This document shows positions 17,131 through 38,721 of a stretch of DNA of 64,000 bases, piece after piece. The DNA is from Thermodesulfobacteriota bacterium (GTDB lineage Bacteria > Desulfobacterota > BSN033 > UBA1163), in NCBI GenBank assembly GCA_035625415.1, contig DASPPQ010000068.1, positions 23,590-87,589 on the forward strand, given 5' to 3'. Numbering within the stretch: position 1 is the stretch's first letter; each line of letters opens with the position of its first letter. Under the pieces are notes generated by a model, which ran no database searches, was not told the origin of the DNA, and was given only the letters and a program-made list of their open reading frames with translations. The position numbers and the translations under genes are program-made.

Positions 17131-17139
17131 AATAAATAA

Positions 17140-17291
17140 AAAGGCCGAATTGAAATAAGCGGGGGAACCAGTTTTTAGGGGTGAATTCTAGACATCTAGA
17201 GAGGATATCCCTTAATCCTAACCCGTCAGCTAACTCCGCAGGCGACTAAGGGAGAGAATCGAACGCAGGGGATCCTCCTCTGCTTTTTTTT
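17140..17291 (+). promoter_or_regulatory. Candidate c-di-AMP (ydaO/kimA-class) riboswitch leader with intrinsic terminator, upstream of kdp operon
   Basis: Contains GCGGGGGAACC, GGGGTGAAT and ACCCGTCAGCTAACTCCGCAGGCG, recalled from memory as c-di-AMP riboswitch signature blocks. Ends in hairpin gcagggg-atcct-cctctgc plus T8. Confidence 0.5.
17265..17291 (+). terminator. Rho-independent terminator/attenuator hairpin + T-run in kdp leader
   Basis: 7-bp GC-rich stem (one G-U pair), 5-nt loop, followed by tttttttt. About 195 nt upstream of the first kdp-associated ORF. Confidence 0.6.
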
Positions 17292-21803: not shown

Positions 21804-21873
21804 TTTGAAGTGAAGCAAGCCTGCCAATCCACCCCGGTCCAGACCGCGAGCGGTGCAGGCAAGGAGGCATAAT

Positions 21874-22893
21874 ATGTTACAAACCCTTTGGAAGAGCATT
21901 TTGTTGCTGTTATTTGCTGTGGTCATCTGTTGCGTTCTTTACCCGCTGGTTTTATGGGTGATCGGACAGGCCGCCTTTTCCTTTCGGGCTAACGGCAGTC
22001 TGCTGAGAGGTCCCGACGGCAAACCGGTGGGATCGCGGCTTATTGCACAACCCTTTACCAAGGACGAATACTTTCAGCCCCGCCCCTCTGCAGCGTCTTA
22101 CGATGCGTCTGCCTCTTCCTCGTCATCCTTGTCCGCCTCCAACTACGCGCTGCGCGACCGGGTCGCCCGGGCACTTGGTCCAATTGTGAAATATCGAAGT
22201 GGCCCCAAAGTCAGACAGCCTGTGGCACTGGACATCGAAAACTGGTTTCAAAAGGATATATTCCAAGGCAAGCCTCACATCGTGGCTCAGTGGGCGGACC
22301 TGCACAACGGCCTGGCGCAAGCGTGGGTCAAGGCGGACCCCAAGAATGGCGCATATGTAGACGGTTGGACAAAGGCTCATCCAGCTATAGTCGCCCAATG
22401 GATCAAGGACAATCCCGGTACGCCTCAACCAAAGGCCGATGATTTGGCCGTCGTGTTCTTTGTGAACTTCTCCACGGAGAACCCCGGTAGATTCCCTTCT
22501 CTTGTCAGCCGCACAGGAGCCGATGGCAAGACCAAAACAACGATTGAACCGGTCAAGGAGGGGTCCGATATTCAATCGATCTTCTTTGACATGTGGCGGC
22601 AGGATCATCCCGAGGCTGACCTTCAGGACGTTCCCGGCGATCTGGTAACCACTTCCGGTTCCGGGCTCGATCCCCATATTACGCTTCAAAACGCCGAGTT
22701 TCAATTGGATCGGATCGCCTCGAAATGGGCCGCCAACTTAAAACGCGATCCGAAGGTAGTCCAAAAAGAGATTGAGGAGATATTGCAGGAAAACGCTTCG
22801 GCCCCATGGTTTGGGCTCGCGGGTGAGAAGCTCGTGAATGTCCTTGAGGTCAATCTCGAACTTCGGAGGCGGTACGGAGCACCATCGCCATAA
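21874..22893 (+). CDS. kdpC: Potassium-transporting ATPase subunit C with a roughly 150-aa internal insertion
   Basis: N-terminus (VLYPLVLWVIGQAAFSFRANGSL) and C-terminus (TTSGSGLDPHITLQNAEF...VNVLEVNLELRR) match KdpC. The middle segment (about residues 95-245) has no counterpart in 190-aa KdpC proteins. Confidence 0.75.
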   Translation: MLQTLWKSILLLLFAVVICCVLYPLVLWVIGQAAFSFRANGSLLRGPDGKPVGSRLIAQPFTKDEYFQPRPSAASYDASASSSSSLSASNYALRDRVARALGPIVKYRSGPKVRQPVALDIENWFQKDIFQGKPHIVAQWADLHNGLAQAWVKADPKNGAYVDGWTKAHPAIVAQWIKDNPGTPQPKADDLAVVFFVNFSTENPGRFPSLVSRTGADGKTKTTIEPVKEGSDIQSIFFDMWRQDHPEADLQDVPGDLVTTSGSGLDPHITLQNAEFQLDRIASKWAANLKRDPKVVQKEIEEILQENASAPWFGLAGEKLVNVLEVNLELRRRYGAPSP

Positions 22894-22959: not shown

Positions 22960-23024
22960 GTCATTCCGGGCTTGACCCGGAATCCAGTTATTTCCCCCCT
23001 GGATTCCTGCTTCGTAGGAATGAC
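22960..23024. repeat. Nested-stem structured element X1 (outer GTCATTCC/GGAATGAC, inner GGAATCCAG/CTGGATTC, two local hairpins)
   Basis: gtcattcc-gggcttgaccc-ggaatccag-ttatttcccccc-ctggattc-ctgcttcgtag-gaatgac. A second copy with compensatory hairpin changes is at 38070-38145. Confidence 0.5.
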
Positions 23025-23087
23025 GTCCTTTGGTGCTATAAATGGCGCTGTGTATAGAACAGGGAAGAATTAATGGGGGAGGGGAGG

Positions 23088-24383
23088 ATGAAAAAGAGAT
23101 TAATAGGTTTGAGTCTGGCGGTGTTGATAATCCTCACATTTGGAATGAATGCACACGCCGAAGAGGCATCTTCATCGACTTCAGACAAAGAGACTCAGGA
23201 GGTAAAGCCGTCGGAGGCACCGGCACCGCCACCCGGACTGTTGATGAGTCTTTTGGGAAAGGCGGGATTGGCCCAACCTTTGGACAAGGCCGGGATTAAC
23301 ATCTACGGCTACATCGAAGGCGGTTACTTTCATGACTTCCGTGTGCCGGGGACTGGCCATGGTCCAACCTTCATCGGGTTTAATAGCTACAAGGACGCAG
23401 TTACCCTTGACAAGATCAGTCTGAATGTGGAGCGCACGGTTGATCCGGCCAAGAAGCAGTTTGACTTCGGGTTCCACGTGGAAGGTATTTATGGGACGGA
23501 TGCCGCGTTCGTCCATTCGAATGGGCTCTTTGACTCACAGACGGGCCGCTATCAAGGAGACCTTCTCCAAGCCTATGTGGACCTGACCCTTCCCGACCTG
23601 CCGGTAAGAATCCGCGCGGGCAAGTGGCTCGCACTGGAGGGCTTTGAGCAATTTAGCGCCAACATCTACGGGGCCTTCGGCGATCCGGCCAGGGCCCTCT
23701 ATTCCTATAGCTACCAGTATCTCTACGCCGAGCCTTTTACTCAGACGGGCATTCTTGTCACCACGGTGCTCAGCCCGCAGTGGTCATTTGACGCCGGCTT
23801 CACGCGGGGCTGGAACCAGTCGGTTAAAGACGCCAATGGTGTCCTGGACTTTTTGGGCCGCATCACGTTTACGCCCAGCGACAAGACCTCCATCGTTCTC
23901 GTTATGACGGAAGGCCCAGAATTTCCGGCGGGTTTCGGACACAATCTGCCTAAAGGCGACCCCCACCACTGGTGGACCGCGTTGGACCTAGTGGTCACCC
24001 AGAAAATTACTGACAAATTGAGCCTGGGCTTGGGTGGTGATTACGTCTATGCTTCGCAGATCCCCGGATTGACAGGCGGTTCGAAGCAGTGGGGAGGTGT
24101 GGCTGGCTATGCGAGCTATGCATTTGGTCCGCATTTCACGTTCAATACCCGACTGGAGTGGTACAGAGATGCGGCCAACGGCTTCTCCGACGGGGCGCCC
24201 GTCAGGGCCAACTATTATGAGGCCACGGTGGGTGTAGCCATTAAGCCTTTCCCGAATGACAAATTCCTCTCGAAGTGGCTGTTCAGACCGGAAGTGCGTT
24301 ACGACCGCGCTGATCACTCGGTCTTCGACGGGGGAGACAGAAATCAGATCACCTTCAGCGTGGATGCCCTCTTCACCTTTTAG
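23088..24383 (+). CDS. Outer-membrane beta-barrel (porin-like) protein with signal peptide
   Basis: MKKRLIGLSLAVLIILTFGMNAHA signal. Alternating amphipathic beta-strand pattern. C-terminal aromatic FTF. Inserted between kdpC and kdpD. Confidence 0.5.
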   Translation: MKKRLIGLSLAVLIILTFGMNAHAEEASSSTSDKETQEVKPSEAPAPPPGLLMSLLGKAGLAQPLDKAGINIYGYIEGGYFHDFRVPGTGHGPTFIGFNSYKDAVTLDKISLNVERTVDPAKKQFDFGFHVEGIYGTDAAFVHSNGLFDSQTGRYQGDLLQAYVDLTLPDLPVRIRAGKWLALEGFEQFSANIYGAFGDPARALYSYSYQYLYAEPFTQTGILVTTVLSPQWSFDAGFTRGWNQSVKDANGVLDFLGRITFTPSDKTSIVLVMTEGPEFPAGFGHNLPKGDPHHWWTALDLVVTQKITDKLSLGLGGDYVYASQIPGLTGGSKQWGGVAGYASYAFGPHFTFNTRLEWYRDAANGFSDGAPVRANYYEATVGVAIKPFPNDKFLSKWLFRPEVRYDRADHSVFDGGDRNQITFSVDALFTF

Positions 24384-36568: not shown

Positions 36569-38020
36569 ATGCCAGAAGAGAAACCCACCACCCTTGATCA
36601 CGAACATCTGCCGACAAAATTAGGAACAGAATTTGTCACAAAATTCAATCGACTCCTAAAAGGAGCGGCCATCTACGATCAGAAGAATGTCAACATCGAC
36701 CGCCTGACGCGTGAATGTGTCCAGACGATCAACGGTATCATCCGATCTCAAGGAAATTTTTTCTTGAAGATCGTTCGTGATAATTTTTTCTTCAATAATA
36801 CCCGGATTGTTGTGAGAGCTGATAAATATCCCATCTTCAAAGCATTTTGGCAGGAGATGAAAAAGCGGTGGATCGGGGAGGTGGAGTTTTTAGAAGAGGT
36901 GAAGGGAGAGCACCTGACGGATTTTGTTTATCTTCTCTCGGGGCTGGAGGAAAATAATGAGAGCAATTACCTCTATGTTAAGAAGCAATTAGAATACCGA
37001 AACATCCAATCCATCGAAGTCGGGAAACTGGAGTTCTTTAGAGACGAAGAGATCTATGTCGATTCGGAGGATCGGAAGAAACATTCGAAAGAGGTCTATT
37101 TTAAGTCCATCGGCTTGGTCAAGGAAGTGGTGGAGAACATCAATCAACAAAAAGCGCTCAATATCCGAAAAGCCAAGCGCCTGATGCAAAACGCTGTCAA
37201 CGCTATCTTGCAGGATGATTCCACTCTGTTGGGATTGGCGAATATCAAGAACTATGACGAATACACCTTCAATCATTCCGTGAATGTGGCCATCTATGCC
37301 ATTGCCTTGGGGCAGAGGATCGGCATTCCCAAGAAGCACCTTTCTCATCTGGGCATGGCAGGGTTATTCCATGATATGGGAAAGACGAGAATTCCGAAGG
37401 AGATTCTTAACAAAACGGGAAAGTTGTCCCCTGAAGAATGGTCGGTCATGCGCTCCCACCCCGTCGTCGGGACGGAACTCATCATGAGGATGAAGGAATG
37501 GGGAGAACTCTCCACCCGGATGATTGAAGGCGCTTTTGAGCACCACCTTCGGTATGATTTGACCGGGTATCCGAGACTTACCCGGAAGAGAAAGATCAGC
37601 CTATTTGGCAGAATCGTAGCCATTGGCGATTTTTATGATGCCTTGGTGAGACCGCGGGTCTACAATCGATTCCCGTATGTGTCCGAAAAAATTCTTGGAA
37701 TCATGCTGGAACGGAGTGGAAAAGACTTCGACCCTGCCATCGTCAAGGTCTTCATCAACATGATCGGCATCTTCCCTCTCGGGACCCTGGTTCTGCTAAA
37801 CACGAATGAAATGGGGATTGTTACCCACATCCAAGAGGATACAGAACTGATCGACCGGCCGAGGGTCTGCCTTCTTTATTACGGCGACGGGGAGTATCGG
37901 AAAGGAAAAATGGTGGATCTGAAAGAGAGGGACGACGCGAGCGGGGATTTCAAGAGGAGCGTCGTCAAAACCCTCGACCCAAATCAATATAACATCAACG
38001 CGGCCGAATTTCTTATGTAA
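36569..38020 (+). CDS. HD-GYP domain c-di-GMP phosphodiesterase with N-terminal domain of unknown function
   Basis: HDMGKTRIP (HD) and LTGYPRL (GYP) motifs. Lies 16 nt downstream of the HEAT-repeat gene. Confidence 0.75.
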   Translation: MPEEKPTTLDHEHLPTKLGTEFVTKFNRLLKGAAIYDQKNVNIDRLTRECVQTINGIIRSQGNFFLKIVRDNFFFNNTRIVVRADKYPIFKAFWQEMKKRWIGEVEFLEEVKGEHLTDFVYLLSGLEENNESNYLYVKKQLEYRNIQSIEVGKLEFFRDEEIYVDSEDRKKHSKEVYFKSIGLVKEVVENINQQKALNIRKAKRLMQNAVNAILQDDSTLLGLANIKNYDEYTFNHSVNVAIYAIALGQRIGIPKKHLSHLGMAGLFHDMGKTRIPKEILNKTGKLSPEEWSVMRSHPVVGTELIMRMKEWGELSTRMIEGAFEHHLRYDLTGYPRLTRKRKISLFGRIVAIGDFYDALVRPRVYNRFPYVSEKILGIMLERSGKDFDPAIVKVFINMIGIFPLGTLVLLNTNEMGIVTHIQEDTELIDRPRVCLLYYGDGEYRKGKMVDLKERDDASGDFKRSVVKTLDPNQYNINAAEFLM

Positions 38021-38069
38021 CCTACCTGAAAACTAACCAAAGATATTTGAAATCTTGGCATTACTTTCT

Positions 38070-38145
38070 CGTTATTCCTGCGGAAACAGGAATCCAGGAT
38101 TTTCCTTGTGAGAACTTTTCTGGATTCTCGCTTTCGCGGGAATGA
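38070..38145. repeat. Nested-stem structured element X2 (second copy of the 22960-23024 element)
   Basis: gttattcc-tgcggaaaca-ggaatccag-gattttccttgtgagaacttttc-tggattc-tcgctttcgcg-ggaatgac. Sits in a convergent intergenic region (HD-GYP + strand / mazG - strand). Confidence 0.5.
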
Positions 38146-38175
38146 CACCCGTTAGTTACCGACGCAACTTGCAAT

Positions 38176-38721
38176 TTATCTTTTCTTTTTTGATTCCTCC
38201 CATAGTCGGTCCATTTCGATGAGGTTAGACTGGGAAAAGGATTTTCCTTCCTTGTGGAGGGAAATCTCAATATAATGAAAACGAGACACAAACTTGGCTA
38301 AAGCCTTTTTCAGCGCCTCCTCTGGGTGGATGCAGAGAATCCGCGAAACGTTTGCGATGACAAAAAGGAGATCCCCGATTTCCTCGCGAATCCTTCTCCT
38401 GTCCCGAAGCGAAAGGGCTTCTCTAAACTCTTTCATTTCTTCTTCCAATTTATTCAACACCCCTTCGATATTTGGCCAGTCAAATCCTACCCGGGAAGCC
38501 TTTTGTGTCAATTGGTAGGCTCGGGAAAGGGATGAGGAATCCCGAGATGTTCCTTCCAAAATAGATCTCCGTTCCTTTTTAAGATTCTTTCTCATCAACC
38601 GATGGGGGACCACTCCCTCCTTCTTTTTCTTCATTTTCGGCAAAGCCTCCAAGTCCCGTAATTCGTAGTCAAAACCCAAGACCCCAGGAATATCTCTGTC
38701 ATGCTGAAATTTTTTCAACAT
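38176..38721 (-). CDS. mazG: MazG-family nucleoside triphosphate pyrophosphohydrolase (short form)
   Basis: C-terminal 110 aa carry the MazG EExGDLLF-type motif (EEIGDLLFVIANVSRIL). The true start may be the internal Met at about 38595. Confidence 0.6.
   Translation of the reverse strand: MLKKFQHDRDIPGVLGFDYELRDLEALPKMKKKKEGVVPHRLMRKNLKKERRSILEGTSRDSSSLSRAYQLTQKASRVGFDWPNIEGVLNKLEEEMKEFREALSLRDRRRIREEIGDLLFVIANVSRILCIHPEEALKKALAKFVSRFHYIEISLHKEGKSFSQSNLIEMDRLWEESKKKR

Follow-up and report, generated by a model that had tools for sequence, protein, structure and literature searches.

The 28-nt Neisseria Transformation Sequence (NTS), CGTCATTCCCGCGMAVGCGGGAATCYRG, contains the classic dRS3 repeat ATTCCC-N8-GGGAAT and, in its generalised form, is called the Ssn-related motif (SRM) (Chenal et al., Nat Commun 2025, PMC11893778). 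The NTS hairpin is bound by SsnA, a small single-domain GIY-YIG protein (cd10448), which cuts a few nucleotides upstream of GTC and does so only in single-stranded DNA and only on the forward strand, never in double-stranded DNA or RNA. Binding depends critically on the C that follows the palindrome, and cutting on the GTC that precedes it (PMC11893778). In N. meningitidis, SsnA lowers transformation by NTS-bearing DNA. Genes of the ssn type are spread across phyla and are often flanked by the motif in an "NTS-ssnA-NTS" arrangement resembling an insertion sequence; Wolbachia is among the SRM-rich genera named (PMC11893778). The related Neisseria dRS3/NIME elements include isolated dRS3-RS-dRS3 units, with an RS of 19 to 214 bp, and NIMEs had been regarded as confined to Neisseria (Bentley et al. 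2007, PMC1797815).

We analysed a 64-kb stretch of DNA (the window) from a Thermodesulfobacteriota metagenome-assembled genome (MAG), in which a sequence-only reading had pointed out two copies, X1 and X2, of a conserved hairpin-forming element. A pattern scan found four units in the window, and X1 and X2 each proved to be one oriented unit of 26 to 28 nt that occurs twice, in inverted orientation. The unit is built as GTCATTCC, a short palindromic core of 9 to 11 nt and GGAATCCAG, and the GGAATCCAG ends point inward in both doublets. X1 (22960-23024, no strand assigned) is an inverted doublet of NTS/SRM-type units in the spacer between kdpC (stop at 22893) and a BBP2 porin gene (start at 23088), and it reads GTCATTCCGGGCTTGACCCGGAATCCAG-TTATTTCCCCC-CTGGATTCCTGCTTCGTAGGAATGAC. 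Its left unit, X1L (22960-22987, plus strand), is GTCATTCCGGGCTTGACCCGGAATCCAG, of the CTTGA-loop class, with an intact 8-bp hairpin. An unstranded spacer of 11 nt, TTATTTCCCCC (22988-22998), separates it from X1R (22999-23024), the minus-strand unit GTCATTCCTACGAAGCAGGAATCCAG, in which an A.G mismatch marks the stem as decayed. X2, likewise without an assigned strand, is an inverted doublet between the convergent HD-GYP (end at 38020) and mazG (end at 38176) genes and reads GTTATTCCTGCGGAAACAGGAATCCAG-GATTTTCCTTGTGAGAACTTTT-CTGGATTCTCGCTTTCGCGGGAATGAC. It comprises X2L (GTTATTCCTGCGGAAACAGGAATCCAG, 38071-38097, plus strand), an unstranded 22-nt spacer (GATTTTCCTTGTGAGAACTTTT, 38098-38119) and X2R (GTCATTCCCGCGAAAGCGAGAATCCAG, 38120-38146, read on the minus strand), the unit nearest of the four to the published NTS consensus. 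X2 as a whole thus spans 38071-38146; the earlier coordinates for it (38070-38145) were one base low, and those for X1 were exact. All four units consist of ATTCC-core-GGAAT followed by CCAG. The C after the palindrome was kept in every unit, and GTC upstream of it in three; X2L begins with GTT, which is GTC in the strain variants L002 and L003.

The sequences and stems of X1 and X2 were present as described, and chance similarity was ruled out. The patterns GGAATCCAG-N5-35-CTGGATTC and ATTCC-N8-12-GGAATCCAG each occurred three times in the window, compared to 0.00 times in 100 dinucleotide shuffles, so that X1 and X2 stand as non-chance, conserved, hairpin-forming elements. The shared build of nested stems was upheld only in part: the stems exist, but they are not independent of each other, since the ATTCC and GGAAT bases are common to local and long-range pairing. 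Because the units are inverted, what had been taken for an outer stem corresponds to the two GTCATTCC ends and what had been taken for an inner stem to the two GGAATCCAG ends. Each "local hairpin" is the palindrome inside one unit.

We compared the four units with the published motifs. Extended by the T upstream of it (38120-38147), X2R fitted the SRM search pattern, HGTCWYN(0-2)YYVSBRHN(0-5)WNVSBRGN(0-2)RNCYNB, and agreed with the NTS consensus at all but 2 of 28 positions. None of the four units matched that consensus with at most one mismatch, the criterion used in the description of the NTS (PMC11893778); the other three had more than four mismatches or a different core length. X2R was also the only one of the four to fit the SRM pattern. 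This pattern is narrow, and it also misses many anchored units of other genomes: among the matches listed there, it missed 93 of 304 units with a core of 10 nt and exact GTCATTCC and GGAATC anchors, and it fitted none of the 26 exactly anchored units with a core of 11 nt (CTTGA loop), so that a failure to fit it carries little weight. The strict dRS3 repeat ATTCCC-N8-GGGAAT was not found in X1 or X2, whose units follow ATTCC-N9-11-GGAAT; a single substitution would turn X2R (ATTCCCGCGAAAGCGAGAAT) into an exact dRS3. The likeness to NTS/SRM lies in the shared oriented GTC, the ATTCC..GGAAT semipalindrome and the C(YRG) after it. It extends to the habits of the family, which is mostly found outside long open frames (by a crude test), occurs in many phyla and forms inverted pairs around ssn genes. 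The differences are that three of the four units here fall outside the published SRM pattern, which misses the CTTGA-loop class (X1L) entirely, and that the Neisseria NTS occurs in hundreds of copies around surface-protein genes, whereas the doublets described here are isolated, gene-less and of low density. With dRS3/NIME, X1 and X2 share inverted repeats of the 20-bp type that flank a short spacer of lower GC content, of 11 and 22 nt here compared to 19 to 214 bp for the RS; unlike those elements, they do not form arrays, and their host is a Thermodesulfobacteriota MAG.

A covariance model (R1) was trained on 38 distinct units, all taken from other genomes, so that the window contributed none. 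Searched against the 64 kb, R1 recovered exactly the four units of X1 and X2, at 33.0 to 23.3 bits (E values of 3e-6 to 9e-4): X2R scored 33.0 bits (E = 3e-6), X1R 28.5 bits (E = 4e-5), X1L 24.0 bits (E = 6e-4) and X2L 23.3 bits (E = 9e-4). The next-best match in the window reached 11.8 bits. The matches were strand specific, with a clear preference for the correct strand. In the 38-unit alignment, the three variable stem pairs covaried, with 22 double-change cells compared to 5.5 +/- 2.0 after shuffling and none of 500 shuffles as high, the five outer stem pairs being fixed by the selection of units and carrying no covariation information. In this alignment, 97.4% of cells were paired, compared to 37 to 53% when the partner column was slid by one. 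The hairpin is thus under selection at the level of the family, as the sequence-only reading had proposed for its structure, although on other grounds: it had cited compensatory changes in the first hairpin between X1 and X2, which two copies cannot show. The two versions of that hairpin belong to two pre-existing unit classes, one with a CTTGA loop and one with a GNRA-like loop, and both classes are common in unrelated genomes. Since they exist there independently, the difference between X1 and X2 does not represent compensatory change between paralogues. The commonest unit in a GTDB scan, among the matches listed, was GTCATTCCCGCGAAAGCGGGAATCCAG, and the X1L arm (core GGGCTTGACCC) recurred identically in the loci L068, L018 and L050, with Nitrospirota and Gallionella among the genomes that carry it. 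The long-range stems showed no covariation and represent only conserved sequence in inverted orientation.

Viral contigs were scanned for single units. Among the matches listed, three loci carried cassettes in which a plus-strand unit, a small GIY-YIG gene and a minus-strand unit follow each other, with the CCAG ends pointing inward as in X1 and X2 (L315, 7786-8164; L252, 936-1305; L206, 2778-3170); their proteins match PF01541. The commonest arrangement of neighbouring units, again among the matches listed and in a sample selected for units, was a plus/minus pair with a spacer of at most 60 nt (35 cases). Inverted unit pairs 269 to 275 nt apart were also seen around small frames that do not encode GIY-YIG proteins, of 89 codons in L262 (11722-12038) and 79 codons in L271 (359-681); these frames may represent a different cargo or be no more than spacer. 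No GIY-YIG/Ssn gene was detected in the window or in about 18 kb more of this organism (about 82 kb in total), which sets this locus apart from the motif-flanked ssn genes, nor in the loci L001 to L205 or L326 to L342. This search combined a regular expression, phmmer with seed sequences, an HMM of the three real cassette proteins and tblastn. The seeds and the cassette HMM recovered GIY-YIG genes in viral-contig loci, indicating that the search works.

The general build also recalls REP doublets (REPINs or BIMEs), which are spread by RAYT, a tyrosine transposase of the IS200/IS605 type. Like these, X1 and X2 consist of two inverted palindromic units with a short spacer in an intergenic position and without target-site duplication, and REP doublets are also thought to act as single-stranded DNA hairpins. 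However, the unit sequence is another one and matches NTS/SRM, and the only gene that we found within the same inverted layout encodes a GIY-YIG protein, in all three cassettes. The enzyme seen with these units, both in the present loci and in published work, is a GIY-YIG nuclease and not a Y1 transposase. Furthermore, RAYT-linked REPs carry a GTAG-type tetranucleotide, whereas the 5' end here is GTCA. We consider it extremely improbable that X1 and X2 are RAYT-spread REP doublets.

A scan for the doublet core GGAATCCAG-N5-35-CTGGATTCC in one genome per GTDB species gave at least 120 stretches. Among the matches listed, these came from Alpha-, Beta-, Gamma- and Deltaproteobacteria, Nitrospirota, Planctomycetota, Chloroflexi, Armatimonadota, Bacteroidota and others, and both outer arms were complete in 50 of the 127 core matches listed. 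Further copies are thus abundant elsewhere, which clearly disposes of the idea, raised earlier as a possible objection, that there might be none. In the organism itself, a third, composite doublet lies about 7 kb past the right end of the window (L336, 19477-19567), and the copy density is modest, at three doublets in about 82 kb. By a crude test, doublets avoid long open frames, with 23 of 50 lying within a frame of at least 120 codons compared to 92% of random positions. No flanking direct repeat was found at the ends of 70 of 73 complete doublets checked for target-site duplication. The palindrome ran at least 3 nt beyond GTC...GAC in 14 of the 73, compared to about 1.2 expected, and all eight doublets with an extension of at least 4 nt had identical cores in both arms, which suggests that some doublets arise by inverted (fold-back) copying. 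The whole-length hairpin was rejected as the selected object: identical cores in both arms were present in only 19 of the 73 doublets, and in neither X1 nor X2.

Two variants of this design were also seen. In Alphaproteobacteria (Rhizobiales, Rhodoplanes, Pseudolabrys), a second doublet family shares the inner GGAATCCAG...CTGGATTCC ends and has long GC-rich arms, such as CGGGGCGCGAGCGAAGCGAGCGAACCC, in place of GTCATTCC; it was found in L016, L023, L026, L028, L040, L046, L054, L055, L069, L070 and other loci. In composite arms, the unit harbours a further hairpin module, such as CCCCGTATCAAGTACGGGG...CTCCAGC, giving mosaics reminiscent of Neisseria NIMEs. Such arms occur in L139 (3615-3750), in the composite doublet of L336 and in the left flanks in L029, L041 and L050.

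The occupancy of the two sites in relatives was then compared. Near-identical contigs of the window organism come from peat and wetland metagenomes, and X2 was present in the near-identical strains L001 to L005. It differs there by two point changes, one of them bringing GTC back to the 5' end of X2L. In L005, from the same population, the contig (4416-4501) ends inside X2 at ...CTGGATTC, which may be an assembly break in the repeat. Many of the metagenomic relatives keep mazG and the HD-GYP gene as a pair. In the closest of these, L126, L131, L133 and L132, X2 was absent and the spacer between the two genes held no unit; their HD-GYP proteins are 96% (L126), 93% (L131 and L133) and 87% (L132) identical to that of the window. 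The spacer measures about 60 to 100 nt in relatives without X2, compared to 155 nt in the window. The more distant L170 and L146 carry their own independent doublets in this spacer, L139 carries a composite doublet there, and L171 has an outward-facing pair upstream of mazG. In three further relatives (L137, 2530-2600; L138, 3500-3560; L145, 3600-3700), short imperfect repeats of the GAGGGATT / GGGATTGAGG type fill the spacer, with no NTS doublet. L329/L330 (porin 85% identical) and L340 (88%) share the kdpC-porin gene order and likewise have no X1 in the spacer between the two genes, which is 97 nt long in L329/L330 compared to 194 nt in the window. The window has about 105 extra nt at each site relative to these loci, of which the elements account for only 65 or 76 nt. 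No target-site duplication or sharp insertion boundary was found for X1 or X2, the spacers of the relatives being too diverged. Since two separate relatives lack each element, both X1 and X2 were most likely gained in the lineage of the window, as judged from these sequence comparisons. The porin homologues P0003, P0004 and P0005 were set aside for the X1 comparison, as they represent paralogous loci in amtB/P-II or urease contexts.

X1 lies within a kdpB-kdpC-porin-kdpD cluster. Upstream of the kdp genes (kdpB open reading frame from 19614), a c-di-AMP riboswitch (RF00379; 98.1 bits, E = 5e-22) was found at 17133-17259 on the plus strand, the sole Rfam family above threshold in the window. 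The KdpC frame (21853-22893, plus strand) is unusually long, at 346 codons, and so is that of the relative L329 (1384-2403, a called gene of 339 aa). The long frame contains two stretches that match the KdpC profile and may encode a duplicated or extended KdpC. The BBP2/OmpL-like porin gene (23088-24383, plus strand) lies between kdpC and kdpD; translation from the ATG at 23088 gives 431 aa, whereas the database entry starts at 23073 and has 436 aa. Porin paralogues with 85 to 86% identity adjoin ammonium transporter/P-II or urease accessory genes in the relatives L326, L331 and L341, which suggests that this porin family is linked to cation or ammonium uptake loci.

We then asked whether X1 and X2 could be a dedicated small structured RNA or a cis-regulatory RNA with a functional nested fold, the first of the functions that had been proposed for them. 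The predicted RNA folds were strong, well below shuffled controls (z = -4.5 for X1 and -7.2 for X2), and the positions are intergenic. However, the reverse complements folded about equally well (z = -3.9 and -4.2), as expected for a DNA palindrome, and both elements also folded well as DNA. ATTCC/GGAAT pairs either locally or at long range, and the stems of X1 and X2 are therefore partly mutually exclusive. The nested fold is favoured over its alternatives in X1 but not in X2, whose minimum-energy fold is one long hairpin. In DNA folding, the X1L hairpin reached -8.5 kcal/mol (z = -3.95) and that of X1R was weak (-2.7 kcal/mol). Two of the four hairpins are decayed, with stem mismatches in X1R (A.G) and X2R (C.A). 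Added to this, the long-range stems lack covariation, the same element occurs in unrelated contexts across phyla, and the known protein partner does not bind RNA (PMC11893778). Nor is the element a conserved regulator of its neighbouring genes, as close relatives lack it at the same sites.

Rfam gave no match at X1 or X2 at gathering thresholds, and more permissive scans for a known RNA family gave only subthreshold matches of the hairpin type (miRNA precursors and WsnRNA46), so that membership in a known family was rejected. The match that speaks for an RNA is the one between X2 and WsnRNA46 (RF02625), which covers the full length of the model (38053-38162, minus strand) at 22.6 bits (E = 0.014). 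This falls short of the gathering score of 65.3 and leaves X2 outside that family; X1 had no match to it. WsnRNA-46 is reported, as cited in PMC12796755, as an expressed Wolbachia sRNA. In a tally of annotated sRNAs that allows for several instances in one strain, it also ranks with the most abundant families (PMC9029176). Its consensus, GuCauccgaGuggcugaCaCuGGgauCcaG...CugGauuCCaGuGucagccaCucggauGaC, reads GTCA-hairpin-TCCAG, a spacer and an inverted copy, like X2. The two differ in that WsnRNA46 is defined as an expressed RNA, whereas X1 and X2 are known here from sequence alone. WsnRNA46 goes unmentioned in the description of Ssn (PMC11893778), and we suggest from its sequence that this "sRNA" may be a transcribed DNA repeat. 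The reported expression of WsnRNA-46 provides a precedent for transcription of such repeats, and X1 and X2, given their positions, are likely transcribed passively. Their absence in close relatives, the symmetry of the strands and the two decayed hairpins are difficult to reconcile with a dedicated RNA function, which is thus unlikely at X1 and X2; for a functional nested RNA fold in particular, we see very little probability.

A second proposal was a terminator-insulator module. On a broader view, X1 and X2 might act mainly as terminators, insulators or mRNA-stabilising 3' hairpins, as E. coli REP elements do. Their placement fits, with X2 separating the convergent HD-GYP and mazG genes and X1 located downstream of kdpC, and any read-through transcript would form stable stem-loops. 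A simple scan flagged the X1L hairpin followed by CCAGTTATTT as terminator-like. This single call nevertheless matches the expectation from shuffles (one found, 0.9 expected), no call was made at X2, and neither element has a convincing T-tract. Moreover, the relative L126, which lacks the element, already has its own hairpin and T-run in the mazG/HD-GYP spacer, and the family is defined by its sequence and not by its position relative to genes. Termination could be no more than a by-product of the insertion of a repeat and would leave the conservation across phyla unexplained. We regard a mainly terminator-like or stabilising role as improbable.

Taken together, X1 and X2 are very probably gene-less doublets of the NTS/dRS3/SRM family of DNA repeats, the targets of Ssn GIY-YIG nucleases. 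The layout of both is that of the ends of an ssn cassette without the gene. Since the same terminal inverted repeats flank ssn-like GIY-YIG genes elsewhere, they would best be read, by analogy, as miniature non-autonomous derivatives (MITE- or REPIN-like) or as isolated "dRS3-RS-dRS3" units. Among the three functions suggested in the sequence-only reading, a protein-binding site came closest, as the unit resembles a published Ssn recognition motif, with the correction that the partner acts on single-stranded DNA and not on RNA (PMC11893778). According to this model, a small single-domain Ssn (cd10448) would recognise the hairpin of the unit and cut single-stranded DNA, and a cognate Ssn would be encoded by this organism. 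Doublets would spread with the help of Ssn or by fold-back copying, and any effects on kdp, porin, HD-GYP or mazG transcripts would be incidental.

X1 and X2 are thus new instances of a known repeat family, in a lineage in which it had not previously been pointed out, and a candidate "new structured RNA" is removed from the window in favour of a known DNA repeat. This is relevant to annotation, as such repeats break assemblies and give spurious sRNA calls. They also give rise to spurious small ORFs. To the Ssn story, the present data add isolated, gene-less doublets of the NTS type in free-living anaerobes, gained at two sites as compared to close relatives, a CTTGA-loop class of units that escapes the published search pattern, and a Wolbachia Rfam sRNA family with the same doublet build. 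A further step, which we put forward tentatively and hold to be possible although doubtful, is that the gene-less doublets are true non-autonomous mobile elements that are cut out or copied via Ssn cleavage at both outer ends, where each strand would be cut once, a few nucleotides upstream of GTC; as a corollary, WsnRNA46 would be a transcribed repeat and not a dedicated sRNA gene. If so, NTS-ssn-NTS would represent a novel type of insertion sequence, with a GIY-YIG single-stranded DNA nuclease as its driver and MITE-like offspring across phyla, and Ssn would power a new class of mobile elements based on single-stranded DNA.
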